From a phage: 64,000 nt of DNA. The DNA is taken from NCBI GenBank assembly GCA_027262695.1, contig GCA_027262695.1_4722.1; one strand, 5' to 3'. Shown piece after piece: positions 1-61,820 of the stretch; position 1 is the stretch's first letter; each line of letters begins with the position of its first letter. A program made the position numbers and the translations under genes. The notes under the pieces were generated by a model. That model made no database searches, was not told where the DNA came from, and was given only the letters and a program-made list of their open reading frames with translations.

Positions 1-33
1 GAACCCCACCAAAACGTCAGACACACGCAAAAA

Positions 34-459
34 TCAGTTCAATGACGTGTACAACGCATAACGGCTATAAATCTCGACCGCTGGCCCATTATGGGTTAAC
101 AGACCATCTCGGTTGTAGTACTGGAAAAACGAATAACGTTTATCGAAGCAGTAGACAAAAGCAATGTCTTTACCATCAAGACCAGTAATGGTTGGTTTGT
201 TTTTGTCTAACAGCGCTTTGACATTTAACAATGTTGCCGCACGTTCTTTAACATTAGGGATCAAGCCATCACAATCGATATAAACTGTGTAGCCTGTTTC
301 AGATGTTGCGACTGTCGTATTTTGATCGATGCGAAAGATTTTCGTGTTATGCGCACCATCTTCAAGAATCGGATTCTGCTTTTCATATTGACGAGAATCC
401 AAATATGTTTCAACGTGATCGCGAATAATTCCGATATACCCGAATACTTCTCTTACCAT
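34..459 (-). CDS. hypothetical protein
   Basis: 141-aa ORF; AAGAGGA-type RBS before ATG at 459; conserved upstream motif at 521-560. Confidence 0.5.
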   Translation of the reverse strand: MVREVFGYIGIIRDHVETYLDSRQYEKQNPILEDGAHNTKIFRIDQNTTVATSETGYTVYIDCDGLIPNVKERAATLLNVKALLDKNKPTITGLDGKDIAFVYCFDKRYSFFQYYNRDGLLTHNGPAVEIYSRYALYTSLN

Positions 460-520
460 CTTGACATCCTCTTATATTGGATTGATTACGGTTTGTTAAA
501 AAGATAAGATACTTTACTCT

Positions 521-560
521 TATCACTAAGGTAATATAGTCGTGAAATAAATTGTGTTAT
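521..560 (-). promoter_or_regulatory. conserved upstream motif copy 1 (putative promoter for leftward transcription)
   Basis: Plus-strand ggtaatatagtcgtgaaataaattgtgtt; minus-strand reading ACAAT-N3-TTTCACG-N-CTATATTAC. Confidence 0.45.
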
Positions 561-580
561 ACGTGAATTAACAGCATAAG

Positions 581-639
581 CCCTCCTCCCCATCCTCCCA
601 ACCCGTAAGGGAAGGGAGGATGCAAGGGAAGGAGGAGGG
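581..639. promoter_or_regulatory. compound GC-rich stem-loop of the CCCTCC/GGAGGG family
   Basis: ccctcctcc at 581-589 pairs with ggaggaggg at 631-639; contains inverted copy of the tcccttacgggtt core. Confidence 0.55.
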
Positions 640-645
640 TAGAGA

Positions 646-1062
646 TTAAATATCGTGGATGGCGGTGCCGTTTAACCAGCAGTACAGCTTAACGCGACAG
701 GGATAACGATTCGCAGCTAAGAGTAATTCATCACGCAAACGTTGATAGACTCCATCTTGATGTTCTCGAACGATAGGGTAATCAGCCCAACATTCGATCA
801 TCACGTCACCATTAGCCAGGATCGTCGTACGCATCCTGTCCTGGATACGACGGTCTTTCTCAGCATTAGGGAGATACATTCCTTCAGTACGAATAAGGTC
901 ACCACAAGGCATGGTTAACCATTCATTCGTCTTACCGGTGTTCTTATAATCCATCACAGCTTGCATTGCAGTGTCAACGCTAAAAGAAACATAATTCCAA
1001 ACAGGTGTCCAGTAGGCGGACTGGGGAATAAAGGTTGCAGGTTGTTCAAGTGTTTCGTTCAT
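646..1062 (-). CDS. hypothetical protein
   Basis: 138-aa ORF in minus-strand gene train; AGGAAA RBS. Confidence 0.5.
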   Translation of the reverse strand: MNETLEQPATFIPQSAYWTPVWNYVSFSVDTAMQAVMDYKNTGKTNEWLTMPCGDLIRTEGMYLPNAEKDRRIQDRMRTTILANGDVMIECWADYPIVREHQDGVYQRLRDELLLAANRYPCRVKLYCWLNGTAIHDI

Positions 1063-1259
1063 GGAGTGCTTTTCCTATTTTTATTTTCTGCACAGGATAA
1101 ATTCAACAGCATAATACCCTTCCCTACCCTTATATGGGGCGGGGAAGGGCTTATGACCGCAATGAGAATCTCTCACGACAAGCTCACAACGATTATCGCG
1201 TAACCCTGCGAGTAAGGGAGATTCGGATCACCTCCTAACGGGAGCTACCCAAAATCTTT

Positions 1260-1895
1260 TTACGCGAAGCGACGCATGTAACCTGCCAGGTAACCGCGGG
1301 TATCGAAGTAGGCGATTTCTGGAATGGCGATGTTAAGGTCGATAGCACGGATTTCAACCTGGCGACGGCTTTCATCATAGATCGCATCCATCAGACGCAG
1401 TACTGTCAGGAAAGCCATGCGGGTATGGTAATCCAGCGGCATGTTGTCGATACCGCGATACAGATAGCGGTTGGCATTAAACGCCCCTTCGCTGTTTTCT
1501 TTCCAAATCTTCAGCACGTCTGCAAAGGCTGTACGGAAGACTTCTGGATTATCAACATCCAGCAATGCGCGGAAAGCAGACATTAAAGAACGCTGATGGC
1601 GGATCAACGATTGCGGTGTCTGGGCCATGGTCGGACCCATTTCTTCCGCGTATTTCTCGAACGGCGCAACCAGAGTTGCAGCACGAGAAGCAACGATAGA
1701 TAACGCCGGTGATTCAACCGCAATCTTTTTCACAGGCTGTTCTTCAACCGCCGGTTTTGGTTGCTCAACGGTTTCAACAACCGGTTCAACAACGTCGGAT
1801 GGCTCTTGTTGTTCCATCACCTCGTCTTCGACAACCGCTTCCTCAGCCGCATTGCCTTGTTTTGCCGCAAAACGTTGGTCTTTATTCTTGGCCAT
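1260..1895 (-). CDS. hypothetical protein with acidic low-complexity N-terminal region
   Basis: 211-aa ORF; GAAAGGAAAG RBS; E/V/P-rich segment (EEAVVEDEVMEQQEPSDVVEPVVETVEQ). Confidence 0.55.
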   Translation of the reverse strand: MAKNKDQRFAAKQGNAAEEAVVEDEVMEQQEPSDVVEPVVETVEQPKPAVEEQPVKKIAVESPALSIVASRAATLVAPFEKYAEEMGPTMAQTPQSLIRHQRSLMSAFRALLDVDNPEVFRTAFADVLKIWKENSEGAFNANRYLYRGIDNMPLDYHTRMAFLTVLRLMDAIYDESRRQVEIRAIDLNIAIPEIAYFDTRGYLAGYMRRFA

Positions 1896-1920
1896 GTTTC
1901 TTTCCTTTCATTTAACAAGA

Positions 1921-3222
1921 TTAACTGATATAGAGTTCGGGATCATAAGGCGCAAGCGAAACGCTGGCGTTATGCATCGCTTTCATCATTGTGTTCATGA
2001 AGACGTTGTTCACGCCGGTAATTTCCGCCCCGATCGCATCCGGGGTTGGAGCCATCGCATTACCGCAACAGGTAGCACAGTATTCCAACGGACCTGCTTT
2101 ACAACGCTGTGGGTCACGTAACTTGATGGTTTGTCCTTCCAGTGAAGCTAACAGCTCTGCATCGATGAGCTTAAGCGCAGCACCATCGATCATGTAACGA
2201 CCTACCAACAACTTGTCTTTGATGTGGTCGCGGTTTACCGTAAACAGAATATGTTCTTGAGTACCACAATCATCCATCGTGATTTTCAGGTTCTGTGTTG
2301 CACGTTGTGATTCTTTAGCGGTTTGTCCTGCTAAAGCGGTTAACGCACCACGCGAGAACGAACCTGCACGTGCGCTGTTGTTATATTCAGCCCAGTGGTC
2401 AACACGCATACCTTCAGCCAGGCTATGCGTAATCACGTTACGTTTACCTGGATCGACGAAGTCAGCTTCAACCCCCATCATGATGTGCGTTTTCTTTCGA
2501 GTATTACCGAAACTCTTGCCGGGGTTAATATAGAACCCTTCTGATTCATCACCCTTAAAGGATTCCTTATCCATTTTGGTTAGCGTGGCTTCGAGTTTGA
2601 TCAGTTCTTCAGGTGTGAATTTACCTTCTTCCTGTAGACGTGCCAGCTCTTTATCACGATAGGCGATAATGTCGTCATCAACTGTTAATGCTTTATCGCT
2701 CATTGATGGAACAATCAAACGATTAATCGCGGTTAACGCACTGATGTTGTTGGTGAATTTCTTCACTTCGCTTGCATACAGCGGACCGATCGGACGTTCA
2801 TTAGGATCGGGAATCCCCTCTTCAGGATCGTCAGCGACACGTGGCGCAATCAACGCTTCCAACGTACCGCTGGTTAACCGTCCTGCTTGATACTCGATCT
2901 GTATCCCAAAAGCGTCATAAAGAACGTACATATTAAACAGCGCTTCACCGAACGTGGTGGTGGTTGTGTTCTTAACCGATGGAAGATCGCCAGGTGCTAA
3001 TTCAAGAGGCTCCCAGAAGTTAAGCAGAGGTTTTGTCGGTTCGGTTTCCCATTGATGTTCTTCACCGTCGATGGTTACGGTAACGATGTTACCTTGACGA
3101 CGAAGTTTTGGTTGATATTTCTCAGCACCGCCTTCAGTAAAAGCGAAAGCATCGTTTATCCATTCAAGATAACGGTAATGTCCCTCACGCAACGCGTAAA
3201 GGAAATAGTCGCGAGGTGTCAT
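1921..3222 (-). CDS. hypothetical protein (possible virion protein)
   Basis: 433-aa ORF tightly packed with flanking minus-strand genes; no recognisable motif. Confidence 0.55.
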   Translation of the reverse strand: MTPRDYFLYALREGHYRYLEWINDAFAFTEGGAEKYQPKLRRQGNIVTVTIDGEEHQWETEPTKPLLNFWEPLELAPGDLPSVKNTTTTTFGEALFNMYVLYDAFGIQIEYQAGRLTSGTLEALIAPRVADDPEEGIPDPNERPIGPLYASEVKKFTNNISALTAINRLIVPSMSDKALTVDDDIIAYRDKELARLQEEGKFTPEELIKLEATLTKMDKESFKGDESEGFYINPGKSFGNTRKKTHIMMGVEADFVDPGKRNVITHSLAEGMRVDHWAEYNNSARAGSFSRGALTALAGQTAKESQRATQNLKITMDDCGTQEHILFTVNRDHIKDKLLVGRYMIDGAALKLIDAELLASLEGQTIKLRDPQRCKAGPLEYCATCCGNAMAPTPDAIGAEITGVNNVFMNTMMKAMHNASVSLAPYDPELYIS

Positions 3223-3233
3223 GTAACAGCTCC

Positions 3234-4112
3234 TTAACCCTGGGCAGGATCGCCGTGACGTGAGACGAATTCGGATAACGCACGTAGCGCTTCTTTTGAT
3301 TCTTCAGCCATCGGGAAGTTTGTCGTAATAAGCTCACGCAAGATAGGAAGGACGGCAGTATCATCGAGATCCGACGCCAGTGCGAACGCGATCAGCTCTT
3401 GCGTGTATTCATACGGTTGTTGTCGTATCGCCGCAAGCTGTCCACGGCATTGCGTCATCAGTAAGTCAAGGGTGACACCAACCGTACCACCTTCTTCGAT
3501 GTATTGCTTAAAGACAGGTGGATACATACCATCCAAAACACGAATACGTCGACGGATGTTTTCAGGAATATGGACGTTTTCCTCATCGGTAAGATTCTCG
3601 CTGTCTTTCTCCAGCTTCTTGGTTAATACTTGCTGAATGCGTGGAAGCAAGCTGGAGTGCACGAAACCGATAAGCTGTATCACGTTTGTGGTGCCGGTGC
3701 CGTAAATATGACGTGCGCATTCGGCCAGCGCTTCAGATGCGGTGTAATCTTCATCTTCAACGATCGCCAACAGTAACGCGGTATCATCATGGGTTTCAAG
3801 GTCCAGCAACGTGGATGCCAACGCATGAAGATATTTCAAGCTGTCTAATGATAAATGCCCTTCGTTCACCCGAATACCAAAGGCCAGCAATTGCTGTTTG
3901 TAAAGTTCGATGCAACCGTTGGTTAAAATGATGTCTAACTCATTTAGGTCGTATTGTTCATCAGCACCGGATAACATCGTATTGCAGAATGTTTCCAGTT
4001 GTTCACATTTAAAATCTTGGTAAAGACGATGCATGCAGTGCTGTAACAGTGTGTGCCTTGTTTCAGGGATTTTACCTTCTAACAAGGCCAAGACGGAATC
4101 AATCATATCCAC
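3234..4112 (-). CDS. hypothetical protein
   Basis: 292-aa ORF; first gene of the leftward unit after the divergent region 4113-4202. Confidence 0.5.
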   Translation of the reverse strand: MDMIDSVLALLEGKIPETRHTLLQHCMHRLYQDFKCEQLETFCNTMLSGADEQYDLNELDIILTNGCIELYKQQLLAFGIRVNEGHLSLDSLKYLHALASTLLDLETHDDTALLLAIVEDEDYTASEALAECARHIYGTGTTNVIQLIGFVHSSLLPRIQQVLTKKLEKDSENLTDEENVHIPENIRRRIRVLDGMYPPVFKQYIEEGGTVGVTLDLLMTQCRGQLAAIRQQPYEYTQELIAFALASDLDDTAVLPILRELITTNFPMAEESKEALRALSEFVSRHGDPAQG

Positions 4113-4202
4113 TCCGGTGCGGTAAATGTCTACTAGCTCTCATAATCTATTGAAGAAACTACCGGCTGACGCCAACTGAGATTAATTAGGAGTAACCATC
4201 CC

Positions 4203-4676
4203 ATGCCAGTTTCATCCAAACCAAGAAAGAAATCCACAGCAAAACCGAAAGCTCAAGAAACAACAGCAATTCGTTGGGACGAGTTACGCGAACCTATCGA
4301 GAATTGCGAATTGTTGCTGAGTACCTTAGGCGCAGCGATCTATCAAGCCACGCAACCTTGCCGTTTACGATTAACCCAAAACAAACGTGATGAGTTCGTT
4401 GCGTTATCAACCAGCACGAATAAAGATCTAACGGAATTACAAACAGAACTGACGACGATCAAGAACTCGATCACGCCAATGTACGGTAAAGAAGTGGATG
4501 AACAAAGTATTCTGTTGCAATACAACTACGGGATGTCGTTAATGAACATCCTGGAACGTGCCTCCGATATTTTGCGTCCTGACGTTGCACGCCTAAGTCA
4601 ATTGCGTGTTGAAGGGATGGAAAACCAAATCAGATTCTCTAACAGTGTTAAATCCCAAGGAGCCGCTGAAGCATGA
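4203..4676 (+). CDS. hypothetical protein, basic N-terminus
   Basis: 157-aa ORF; AGGAG RBS 8 nt upstream; stop overlaps next start (ATGA). Confidence 0.55.
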   Translation: MPVSSKPRKKSTAKPKAQETTAIRWDELREPIENCELLLSTLGAAIYQATQPCRLRLTQNKRDEFVALSTSTNKDLTELQTELTTIKNSITPMYGKEVDEQSILLQYNYGMSLMNILERASDILRPDVARLSQLRVEGMENQIRFSNSVKSQGAAEA

Positions 4677-6313
4677 GCGAACAAGAAAAAGAAGCCATTA
4701 AAGATCGGACTGAAGACGTAGCGCGTTCAGAAAGCAATGCTTACGTTTCGTATTCAGAGCCTGTTGGTTCAGAACAAGATCAAGCATCTGAAGCCACGTA
4801 CGAAGAAGCCCCAGCGCATCCACCACTGATTGATTTCTCAAAAGCAACCATACGGTTCCAGTGTGACGATATTCGTCCGAAGAATCCGAAGAAAACGAAA
4901 CGTCAACCGTTGATGTTACCGCTCTATTCACCACGCGTACATACAGCGTTTTATCAGCAGTATATCGCGGATGCGTTGGATACCGTCCAGGACATCATTG
5001 CAAACCGTCAACAACCGACCGAAGAACAATTTGATCGATTCAATAAAGCCGCGATTCAATCGTTCTCTGACGGACAGTATCAGCCGAATGGCGATGCTCA
5101 GGATCGTGCATTAGAACGTAAGGGGAGTCAATGGACGAACGTACCGGTTGACGCTTCCGGCGTTGGACGTGTTATACCGGGTATCCCACAACCGAATCAT
5201 ATCCCCGATGATGTTGAAGCACCGCTGACTGGATCGGACGCGATTTATTTCGCCATTCGTAATACGAAATCAGGTGCTCCGGCTGTGATGCCGTTATGGC
5301 ATAGCGGAATCAAACTGCAATTCAACCCACCATCGAATGAACGCGTTGCGATCATGCATGAGCGTATCGCACGTGATAAAATTCTGGGTGGTCGTGATAG
5401 TGCTGGATTCTTGTTTTCGGCAACGTCGATTATCACCATGAAACACGCGATCGAATTAGCTCTCGAATGCTGTTACATGGCCAACGTTCCGAATCTGGAT
5501 ATTCAGCGTTTAAAAGACATCATCCCCGTTACAGATGTTCCAGCGCTCTTGTTGAACGTGTTGGTGACCATGTACCCCTACGGCTATCCGTACGTACAGA
5601 CCTGTTACCAGAATCCAGATACCTGTGATTACCGTGTTGAAGATATCGTCAGTTTTGCGAAGCTTTATCAAGTTGACAACAGTGCGATTACAAAACGTAT
5701 GCGTCAGATCATGACCGAAGGTCCGGTCATGACGGATGAGCTTTTGCGCGAATACGCGAACGAGCTGGGTGAAACCAATTCCCGTACGTTGGATCTGTCT
5801 GATAACGGTTCGGTGATCATTGAACTTGAAGTCCCGAAAATCTCCCGTCATATCGCCATGGGTGAACGCTGGTTAAGCGATACCTTAGAAGATCTCCGTG
5901 ATATTCTTTCTCGTCCATCGATGACGGAAGAAGAACGTGATCGCGTTATCCGTGAACGTCAGTTCTACAGCTGGATGCGTCAGTACGATGCGTGGATCAA
6001 ATCCATGCATGTGTCAGTAAACGGTACCATGCGTCGTGTAAGCGAAGCAGACACACCGGTCGTATTAGCGCAGTTATCCCGCGACAGCGACTTACGCGAA
6101 CGTTACATTGACGGGTTGATGCAATTCATCGGCGATTCAACCATCGCGCTTGCAGCGATGCCTGCCTGGAAGTGTCCGAAGTGTAACGAGGATATTGCGG
6201 AGAATCTTCGCGATCAGAAATACTACGACTTGATTGCATTGGATGTACCCCAGCTTTTTTTTACCCTAAACTCCGTCCAATCGCTGAGGGAGGGGATGGA
6301 CGCGGTATTCTAA
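4673..6313 (+). CDS. hypothetical protein (546 aa)
   Basis: Long plus-strand ORF translationally coupled to the upstream gene; no confident motif. Confidence 0.6.
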   Translation: MSEQEKEAIKDRTEDVARSESNAYVSYSEPVGSEQDQASEATYEEAPAHPPLIDFSKATIRFQCDDIRPKNPKKTKRQPLMLPLYSPRVHTAFYQQYIADALDTVQDIIANRQQPTEEQFDRFNKAAIQSFSDGQYQPNGDAQDRALERKGSQWTNVPVDASGVGRVIPGIPQPNHIPDDVEAPLTGSDAIYFAIRNTKSGAPAVMPLWHSGIKLQFNPPSNERVAIMHERIARDKILGGRDSAGFLFSATSIITMKHAIELALECCYMANVPNLDIQRLKDIIPVTDVPALLLNVLVTMYPYGYPYVQTCYQNPDTCDYRVEDIVSFAKLYQVDNSAITKRMRQIMTEGPVMTDELLREYANELGETNSRTLDLSDNGSVIIELEVPKISRHIAMGERWLSDTLEDLRDILSRPSMTEEERDRVIRERQFYSWMRQYDAWIKSMHVSVNGTMRRVSEADTPVVLAQLSRDSDLRERYIDGLMQFIGDSTIALAAMPAWKCPKCNEDIAENLRDQKYYDLIALDVPQLFFTLNSVQSLREGMDAVF

Positions 6314-28860: not shown

Positions 28861-28937
28861 AATTACATCCTCTTAATACGGATTGATTTTAGATTGATAA
28901 CAACATAACAGCCCTCCGAAGTGGAGGGCCTGGTTAA

Positions 28938-29249
28938 TTACTTGTAGAAATGACGTAAAACCGTTGCGATAGGGAACAACCCTGTAACGGTGTTATCACC
29001 CGCGAACATCATGTTCGAACCATTAACCGTGATGAAACGGATATCGGTTACTGAACCATCGATGGCGACAAATCGCATCGAGTTAGGTGGAAGATCTTCA
29101 ATAACATCCTCCAGGTATTCACGGTTTTCAAACGCTTCTTTAACACGACGCATGAAACGAATCAAGGTTCCTTCAGCATCAGCTTCCAAATGGCCTAAGG
29201 TATCACGATTGTTACGAATAGCGAATACAGTCATTTTAAACATATTCAT
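28938..29249 (-). CDS. hypothetical protein
   Basis: 103-aa ORF; conserved upstream motif at 29311-29345. Confidence 0.45.
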   Translation of the reverse strand: MNMFKMTVFAIRNNRDTLGHLEADAEGTLIRFMRRVKEAFENREYLEDVIEDLPPNSMRFVAIDGSVTDIRFITVNGSNMMFAGDNTVTGLFPIATVLRHFYK

Positions 29250-29310
29250 CCTAGCATCCTCTTGTGTTGGATTGATTTCTAAACATCTAGGTGAAGCATA
29301 TTACTGCTTT

Positions 29311-29345
29311 GCTTCACCTTGGTAATATAGCCGTGAAAATTATTG
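29311..29345 (-). promoter_or_regulatory. conserved upstream motif copy 2
   Basis: Plus-strand ggtaatatagccgtgaaaattattgtatt. Confidence 0.45.
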
Positions 29346-29376
29346 TATTAGCTTATCACGCCTTCGTTAAATAAGG

Positions 29377-49191: not shown

Positions 49192-49914
49192 ACGCTGATA
49201 AAGCTGACACGACAGTGCGCGCGTAGGTACGTTATGCGCATTCAACCAGAGTTCGGTTTCGCTCTGTTTAACGTCGTCAGTAACCCATCGTGCCCTTAGC
49301 GCATCGTTACGGTGGACGTAATAAACACGTTCGTCGATGGTGAGCTCGTGAGTGTAGAACTGATAGAAACTATGGCATGCGGGAAGCGCCATATCGTCTA
49401 AATCGCCTACGTTCCATGCACTAACGATAATCCGCCGAGAATCAGGATCTTCTTTGAGTTGACGCATCACGTTTGCAATTTGGTCATGGTGTTTAACATA
49501 CAAGAGATGTTTGACCATACCGTCGTTAACAATACCGCAATACTCATAACCACGTTGCATCAAAGTACGGGTACGTTCTGTATCATGCGGAACAACCACT
49601 TTGTAGTCAATCCATTCTCGCCATTGTCTGCCGTAAATCGGTCCTAGATTCCCTTCCTTATCAGCCCACTCATTCCAGATGCGAACACCATTATCCTGAA
49701 GATAAGCAACGTTTGTGTCGCCGTTAAGAAACCAGAGCAGTTCGTGGATAACGCTCTTAAGGTGAATCTTCTTAGTGGTTACCAGCGGGAATCCTTTCTT
49801 CAAGTCAAAACGCATTTGACGCCCGAATACCGAACGGGTACCGGTACCTGTACGATCGGCCTTATCGCGACCGTTATCCATGATGTCTTGCAAAAGGTCC
49901 AAATACTGTTTCAT
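49192..49914 (-). CDS. thyA: thymidylate synthase, exon 1
   Basis: [38 protein letters not shown]... closely matches ThyA N-terminus; [14 protein letters not shown] and catalytic-Cys motif [11 protein letters not shown] present. Confidence 0.9.
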
Positions 49915-60927: not shown

Positions 60928-61614
60928 TTAACACATGATTTCACCATGTTTCTTTTCAACATACGTATAAACATCATCCAAATAAGCGATGAGTTTATCA
61001 CGATTCGCACAAAGCGATTTGATCGTTGCAATCTCTTTCGTATAAAGCTGCTGGCCCAGGGCTGGATAAGTAATCCAAGCATAACCATCAGGTGCGAATT
61101 TAGAGATAAGGTAATCGGCGGTTTCCTGTAATGCGAACTCCTTGCTCATCTGGCCGTAGCGGTGTTCGATAGCACGAATACCAAAACGTTCACTATCAAG
61201 ACGACCCATATCCGCCAAACGAAGAACCTGAGAAGCCACAGAACTACGTGGACCGGAATACGAGGCGCGATGTTCAGCAATGAGTACGCGTATCTCCTCG
61301 ATATCTTCCGGTGTGAAAATATGTTGCTCATTACGAAGTAAGATAATCGACGCGCGAATACCGCCAATAAGGTGGTGGTATGTTCTGTTCTCATGACAAG
61401 CGATATCATGCATGAACGCTGCGGTTAACAGACGACGGCGTTCAACCGGTCGAATGATACCAACCACATCAGCAAGTTCATTTGCCAGTTCGACAACAGC
61501 AAGGACATGTTCTTCTTGATGGGCAAGATCGTTCTTTTTAATGTTATCAATAACTTCAGTGCGTGTTTCCTGAGATAAGAAATTTAAGCAGTCTAACGAA
61601 AATAAAGATTTCAT
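60928..61614 (-). CDS. HD-domain phosphohydrolase
   Basis: 228 aa; H...HD...D pattern (EEHVLAV, AAFMHDIACHE, RLADMGRLD); conserved upstream motif at 61654-61690. Confidence 0.6.
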   Translation of the reverse strand: MKSLFSLDCLNFLSQETRTEVIDNIKKNDLAHQEEHVLAVVELANELADVVGIIRPVERRRLLTAAFMHDIACHENRTYHHLIGGIRASIILLRNEQHIFTPEDIEEIRVLIAEHRASYSGPRSSVASQVLRLADMGRLDSERFGIRAIEHRYGQMSKEFALQETADYLISKFAPDGYAWITYPALGQQLYTKEIATIKSLCANRDKLIAYLDDVYTYVEKKHGEIMC

Positions 61615-61653
61615 CGTACGTACCTCTTTGACTGTATTAATAAATCGTGTTTA

Positions 61654-61690
61654 CTCACGTAAGTAATATAGCCGTGAAAGGATTTGTATT
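61654..61690 (-). promoter_or_regulatory. conserved upstream motif copy 3
   Basis: Plus-strand agtaatatagccgtgaaaggatttgtatt. Confidence 0.45.
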
Positions 61691-61757
61691 GGCACGTTCG
61701 ACGTTCATCGTATTTTATGGATTGTCGAATGACGTCATTTTAAGGGACATCCCCGGC

Positions 61758-61791
61758 CTCCTCCCCAGGAAAGGTGTGGGGAGGAGTTTTT
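61758..61791 (+). promoter_or_regulatory. stem-loop followed by T5 in helicase 5-prime region (terminator-like, rightward orientation)
   Basis: ctcctcccc / ggggaggag stem with 11-nt loop, then ttttt. Confidence 0.45.
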
Positions 61792-61820
61792 ACCAGACTT
61801 TTATTAATTCGAGTGCGAGT

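Follow-up and report, generated by a model that had tools for sequence, protein, structure and literature searches.

Three putative phiKZ-type early promoters in a relative of the E. coli jumbo phage Goslar

Results

Genes and conserved sites in the window

The 64,000-nt stretch of phage DNA analyzed here (the window) carries three minus-strand genes that are each preceded by a copy of the same non-coding block. The first copy (site 1; 521..562, minus strand) lies upstream of a gene at 34..459 (minus strand) encoding a 141-aa homolog of Goslar gp075. Site 2 (29312..29353, minus strand) precedes the gene at 28938..29249 (minus strand), which encodes a 103-aa homolog of Goslar gp105. Site 3 (61653..61694, minus strand) is followed first by the gene at 60928..61614 (minus strand), whose 228-aa product is a Goslar gp159 homolog with an HD domain (PF01966, E 1.5e-7). 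A long series of minus-strand genes begins with the HD-domain gene. The 141-aa and 103-aa proteins matched no Pfam or PHROG family, and no structural gene directly follows any of the three sites. A terminator-like hairpin (28910..28930, minus strand; -17.1 kcal/mol, z -3.2) is located directly after the 103-aa gene, and the unit behind site 2 is therefore considered monocistronic. In the Goslar record a terminator is annotated directly after gp075; the edge of the window cuts off its counterpart. Sites 1 and 2 each seem to serve a short monocistronic unit, in which a small ORF is followed by a terminator. The window also contains a gene for a virion RNA polymerase (vRNAP) subunit (1921..3222, minus strand). 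Its product is identical to Goslar gp078 at 428 of 433 residues (99%) and matches phrog_2962 (RNA polymerase beta subunit) with an E value of 3.5e-106.

A search of the window with TTTCACGNCTATATTAC found exactly three matches without a mismatch, all on the minus strand (531-547, 29322-29338, and 61663-61679), in agreement with the first-pass annotation, which had reported three minus-strand copies at these places. Raising the tolerance to 3 mismatches gave no extra match. The looser 12-base pattern TAYATTACNNNNNTG returned these three sites again (0.33 expected), a count that 0 of 100 shuffled sequences reached. Read on the minus strand, the sites are acACAATttaTTTCACGaCTATATTACcttaGTGAtaag (site 1), atACAATaatTTTCACGgCTATATTACcaagGTGAagc (site 2), and atACAAAtccTTTCACGgCTATATTACttacGTGAgta (site 3). 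All three are intergenic. The ATGs of ORFs 34-459, 28938-29249, and 60928-61614 follow the last motif base at 72, 73, and 49 nt, respectively, within the range of 40 to 100 nt proposed earlier. The motif had been described as 25 bp long; the conserved block is in fact about 40 bp and can be written as TAAYNCAA-N4-TTTCACGRCTATATTAC-YNNN-GTGA, with TAAY at its upstream edge and an invariant GTGA at its downstream edge. The upstream element ACAAT, which was thought to be common to all copies, is present in copies 1 and 2 and reads ACAAA in copy 3. Each site contains the exact core TATATTAC (3/3). TTT is located 6 nt upstream of this core at all three sites and at most of the Goslar sites described below. 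At the level of sequence only, the 7th base after the core is a G, which lies within the invariant GTGA, at 3/3 sites.

Placing the predicted transcription start at this G, the block extends from about -38 to +4 and the core takes the place of a -10-like box. Site 1 (GTATAACACAATTTATTTCACGACTATATTACCTTAGTGATA) has its box at 538-531 and a predicted start at G524. The box of site 2 (AGCTAATACAATAATTTTCACGGCTATATTACCAAGGTGAAG) is found at 29329-29322 with a predicted start at G29315, and that of site 3 (TGCCAATACAAATCCTTTCACGGCTATATTACTTACGTGAGT) at 61670-61663 with a predicted start at G61656. The predicted 5'UTRs are 65, 66, and 42 nt in length, and the Goslar counterparts of the three predicted starts are positions 86691, 113783, and 142786.

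Two weight matrices were used to scan the window. Matrix A was derived solely from six Goslar sites whose positions are not orthologous to those in the window. It scored the three window sites at 29.5 to 37.1 bits, the next window match at 13.4 bits, and the null maximum at 19.6 bits. The recovery of the window sites is not circular, because a matrix derived from non-orthologous Goslar sites gives the same three. With matrix B (Goslar sites), sites 1, 2, and 3 scored 45.8, 43.5, and 43.0 bits and nothing else in the window exceeded 10 bits. No weaker window copy was detected with up to 3 mismatches, with the two weight matrices, or with the C-variant TACATTAC.

Conservation in Goslar and a close relative

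In a megablast search, window positions 1-6000 matched a single phage, Escherichia phage vB_EcoM_Goslar (237 kb, genus Goslarvirus), with 84% identity in collinear order. A second window segment is 79% identical to Goslar. As judged by this nucleotide identity of 79 to 84%, the window phage is a relative of the E. coli jumbo phage Goslar in the Chimalliviridae. Goslar, a nucleus-forming jumbo phage, is the model for studying the phage nucleus and the early-infection vesicle in E. coli. The motif recurs in Goslar at each of the three orthologous positions (upstream of gp075, gp105, and gp159), as it does in an uncultivated relative, IMG/VR 3300011560_000001 (237.5 kb). Alignment of the orthologous sites shows no variation in the 17-nt core apart from one T-to-C change at the Goslar gp075 site (TACATTAC). 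Invariant columns make up 82 to 95% of the 40-nt block versus 63 to 87% of the flanking non-coding DNA. At site 2 the core is invariant in the three phages and the flanks are 63% invariant.

In the whole Goslar genome, TAYATTACN5TG has 13 matches, all on the minus strand, which bears most of the genes and is the coding strand at these sites. Twelve of the 13 are intergenic and lie directly upstream of gp004, gp021, gp040, gp075, gp105, gp159, gp175, gp182, gp246, gp225, gp214, and gp200. Among these, gp246 is the nuclear-shell gene encoding chimallin. The remaining site falls inside a small annotated ORF, gp047. Matrix B recovered the 13 sites at 29 to 52 bits together with two weak extra sites (null maximum, 15 bits). 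The consensus for the Goslar clade is TAAYNCAA-N4-TTTCACGRC-TAYATTAC-YNNN-GTGA, in which the spacer is G+C-rich and TACATTAC is tolerated. The GenBank record of Goslar has annotated terminators and no annotated promoters. In the literature searched, we found no description of Goslar-type promoters and no mapped transcription starts for Goslar or the window phage.

Two Goslar copies have an unusual setting or sequence. The copy at 49715-49756 (minus strand) is of full strength (44.9 bits) and lies within the 62-aa ORF gp047, which suggests either that gp047 is mis-annotated or that a promoter of gp046 overlaps it. The copy at 151617-151658 (minus strand), one of the two weak extra sites, is a degenerate block with TACATAAC (22.6 bits). 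It lies upstream of gp165, which carries the annotation RNA polymerase beta subunit, and may act as a weak early promoter of this polymerase subunit gene.

Leaders and hairpins around the sites

Between site 1 and its gene there is a leader and ribosome-binding module (CAATCCAATATAAGAGGATG; 465..484, minus strand) that is shared with the leader of site 2 (29255-29274); two copies were found versus 0.02 expected. This 20-nt module, CAATCCAAYAYAAGAGGATG, ends in a ribosome-binding site and lies at the same distance from the predicted start in both leaders (predicted UTRs of 65 and 66 nt). It is kept in the orthologs in Goslar and the IMG/VR relative and absent elsewhere, and the two ORFs behind it are unrelated.

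Inverted repeats at 503-524 and 29289-29319 (both minus strand) begin at or just before the predicted +1, and a 5'-terminal RNA hairpin is predicted from them. Similar repeats at +1 are seen at the Goslar sites before gp021, gp047, gp075, gp105, and gp246; in the orthologs the stems are conserved and the loops vary. Site 3 has no 5'-terminal hairpin. Such a hairpin is present at 5 of the 13 Goslar promoters versus 20% of 3000 matched controls (p about 0.1), with a shift in MFE at p = 0.03. We do not claim the 5'-terminal hairpin as a general promoter feature, as the trend is weak (5/13 versus 20%).

Upstream of site 1, a very stable hairpin with C-rich and G-rich arms (581..639, minus strand; -43.3 kcal/mol, z -4.6) immediately follows the stop codon of the preceding gene, 646-1062. 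It is probably the terminator of this gene and an insulator of the putative promoter at site 1. A weaker hairpin (61756-61787; -25.6 kcal/mol, z -1.5) lies upstream of site 3 in a divergent intergenic region and is likewise a probable insulator. Both hairpins have stems of the CCCTCCTCC / GGAGGAGGG type, 40 to 90 nt upstream of the respective sites. In this divergent region Goslar has an annotated plus-strand "terminator". The divergent intergenic region (61600-61800), between the HD-domain gene and a plus-strand helicase gene, is 96% identical in the three phages, in genomes that are otherwise 79 to 84% identical. It contains a perfect palindrome, AATGACGTCATT, at 61728-61739, which also occurs in the leader of the Goslar chimallin gene but shows no overall enrichment. 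The palindrome ATGACGTCAT is not enriched (6 matches with at most 1 mismatch versus 3.5 expected).

Comparison with published early promoters

A motif of this kind is reported before the early operons of every jumbo phage that has its own polymerases. Where tested, it was an early promoter centered near -10 and was read by a virion-packaged multisubunit polymerase (PMC7598289, PMC10914365, PMC13282480). The published early-promoter consensus of phiKZ is TATATTAC (PMC7058600, Table 2), which is identical base for base to the core of the window sites. We also read the phiKZ DNA directly. The first 50 kb contain seven TATATTAC sites, all on the plus strand, and the six that were mapped to the annotation all lie between genes. 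In all seven sites TTT precedes the box by 6 nt, and T-G follows it at positions 6-7. The likeness to the window sites covers the TTT, the T-G with its G at the mapped-start position, the intergenic location, and the common direction with the genes; as in Goslar, one phiKZ copy lies before the chimallin gene. The phiKZ site before the chimallin gene gp054 reads tgaaaaaaaTTTgagattTATATTACtaaattGaat and is nearly collinear with the Goslar site before the chimallin gene gp246, tgaaaaaaaTTTcagggtTATATTACctaggtGaat. In phiKZ the early motif is carried by the primary TSS of PHIKZ054 (PMC8244752; Wicke 2020). The differences lie in the spacer between the T-tract and the box, which is A-rich in phiKZ (AAACAG, AAGATA) and G+C-rich in the Goslar clade (CACGGC), and in features of the Goslar clade that set it apart from phiKZ: tolerance of TACATTAC, an invariant start-site GTGA, and the element TAAY-CAA near -30. 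The hosts also differ, E. coli for the Goslar clade versus Pseudomonas for phiKZ.

The flanks of the block resemble the extended consensus sequences of early promoters predicted or mapped in 201phi2-1, OBP, and N1M2. The consensus is TTAWTAVAA_HYWTTTRARR_BTATATTACDWHDGTG for 201phi2-1 and TTTCARRYAKATATTATYWAAGTG for OBP/N1M2 (PMC7058600, Table 2). Like the window block TTTCACGRCTATATTACYNNNGTG, these are long and tripartite, with TTTCA, the same spacing, the box, and a downstream GTG (PMC7058600, PMC11512511). The spacer is CGRC in the window, whereas it is purine-rich, RR(Y)A, in 201phi2-1, OBP, and N1M2; the upstream elements differ as well. Directly after the box the window has C or T, and 201phi2-1 has "not C". 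AR9, a PBS1-like Bacillus phage, has the early consensus AAATATATATTAT-(6N)-G+1, and its early transcripts are made despite chloramphenicol (PMC5312081). Common to AR9 and the window are the TATATTA(Y) box and, after 6 nt, an initiating G; AR9 is also similar in that an injected multisubunit polymerase reads its early promoters without new protein synthesis. AR9 is not a chimallivirus. It differs in its uracil-containing genome and in an upstream element that is a pure AT-run, and it lacks TTTCACG and GTGA. In phiKZ and phiR1-37, transcription starts 6 nt downstream of the consensus element (PMC5312081). The three window sites have every sequence-level feature that defines a phiKZ-type early promoter.

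Discussion

We consider it very probable that a Goslar-like nucleus-forming jumbo phage uses the three sites as early promoters and that they are read by its virion-packaged vRNAP. The start points, timing, and polymerase are our inference: promoter activity, timing, and the start nucleotide are extrapolated from phiKZ, 201phi2-1, AR9, and phiR1-37. In AR9 one deviation from the consensus can abolish activity (PMC5312081), so that a sequence match alone is no proof of function. The first-pass annotation had proposed a phage promoter marking a temporal class. By homology this proposal holds up, and the class would be early, as the core equals the phiKZ consensus and the flanks correspond to the extended consensus of 201phi2-1 and OBP/N1M2. 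Its suggestion of a modified host polymerase is not supported; the polymerase would be the phage's own virion enzyme, of which the window encodes a subunit. The alternative that it named, a phage factor, is correct only if the term is taken broadly, since the phage makes the whole enzyme.

Several reports link such promoters to the virion polymerase. The phiKZ early promoters are assigned to the virion RNA polymerase by Ceyssens 2014, as cited in PMC7598289. In Goslar, gp78 is among five vRNAP subunits found in virions by mass spectrometry (bioRxiv 10.64898/2026.04.21.720040); the genes for the other four lie outside the window. Early genes of Goslar, chmA among them, are transcribed by vRNAP from the injected genome, and a tagged Goslar virion polymerase was located together with this DNA inside the early infection vesicle (10.1101/2023.09.20.558163).

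Drawing on these relatives, we propose that vRNAP would bind the block of about 40 bp from -38 to +4. Its parts would be the A-rich or TAAY-CAA element (about -35 to -27), the T-tract with CACG (about -23 to -17), and the box TATATTAC (-14 to -7). The first transcribed base would be the later of the two Gs in the invariant GTGA, 7 nt beyond the box, which gives G524, G29315, and G61656 on the minus strand; the +1 position is taken from the text of PMC5312081. Initiation would be expected within minutes of infection and would need no host RNA polymerase, sigma factor, or new protein synthesis. From site 3, transcription would enter the long leftward gene array headed by the HD-domain protein. 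In RNA-seq of Goslar, presented at 1-kb resolution, 175 of 249 genes were detectable at 5 min (Armbruster et al., 10.1101/2023.09.20.558163). The roughly 13 to 15 promoters of this type may not explain all of these early genes, and other early start signals could therefore exist.

A different phage enzyme might use the sites. The phage family encodes two polymerases, and PHIKZ054 has a middle start in addition to its early one, so the block might be a middle or late promoter of the second, non-virion polymerase. The phiKZ middle motif is TACT at about -22 after an A-run, however, and its late motif, TATG, overlaps the start (PMC7598289, PMC8244752); the block looks like neither of these and instead matches the early consensus base for base. 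No structural gene lies directly downstream of the three sites, which fits the early class. We regard a middle or late assignment as very unlikely.

It is even less credible that the sites are host promoters used by the E. coli sigma-70 holoenzyme, with TATATT as the -10 hexamer. This hexamer agrees with TATAAT at 5 of 6 positions and, like that of a sigma-70 promoter, is AT-rich and located about 10 nt before the start. The first-pass annotation had noted a poor fit to sigma-70, and consensus scans bear this out. We looked for -35 and -10 hexamers 16 to 18 nt apart with at least 9/12 matches in the same register in all copies. Site 1 just reaches the threshold with ATAACA-16-TATATT (9/12), but sites 2 and 3 give no match with TATATT as the -10 hexamer and are not called, and there is no conserved -35 element at 16 to 18 nt. 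The strongest conservation falls instead on TTTCACGRC directly 5' of the box, the trailing AC, and GTGA, which are low-information positions in sigma-70 promoters. Conservation in the window block runs continuously from the box up through TTTCACGRC, with GTGA added at the start site, unlike in a sigma-70 promoter. In phiKZ, moreover, the same architecture serves a host-independent polymerase (PMC10914365, PMC7598289).

We attach almost no weight to a third reading, in which the block would be a regulator binding site or a repeat dispersed by duplication or a mobile element and would have no promoter activity: sites 1 and 2 do also share the 20-nt leader module, but site 3 and ten other Goslar copies have only the promoter block in common, 12 of 13 Goslar copies keep a strict orientation to the gene downstream, and the motif is common to the distant phages phiKZ and AR9, in which starts have been mapped. 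Duplication of a gene cassette at sites 1 and 2 was considered separately and ruled out, as the downstream proteins are unrelated and the similarity is confined to the promoter block and the 20-nt leader.

As early promoters, the three sites would probably be the points at which the polymerase injected by an E. coli-infecting chimallivirus begins the infection program, with three precise predicted starts (G524, G29315, and G61656). An early-promoter class is expected for a phiKZ-like phage and is not surprising, the promoter type being known already from phiKZ and its relatives. The 40-bp consensus and the 13 to 15 Goslar sites would help to define the immediate-early regulon. The consensus could also be used to drive reporters or payloads from the injected genome, and it offers a basis for in vitro work on promoter recognition by a multisubunit virion polymerase that lacks sigma.

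At sites 1 and 2, the block (about -38 to +4), the 5' hairpin, and the leader CAATCCAAYAYAAGAGGATG might together form a composite "immediate-early cassette", although we think this unlikely. If such a cassette exists, the hairpin and leader might stabilize the first phage mRNAs, aid their export from the early infection vesicle, or favor their translation.

Exact matches to the motif were also seen in other IMG/VR contigs. Those in small contigs look like chance matches, as the flanking consensus is missing. Four uncultivated, unclassified jumbo-phage contigs of 214 to 229 kb (L007, L011, L020, and L023) carry TTTCACGTCTATATTACTTGGGTGA, with the same 17-mer in the context TTTTTTTAAGATACAGNNGGTTTCACGTCTATATTACTTGGGTGATTAAGAC. 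They show no nucleotide similarity to the sequenced phages in the collection searched and probably represent another chimallivirus-like clade with the same type of promoter.
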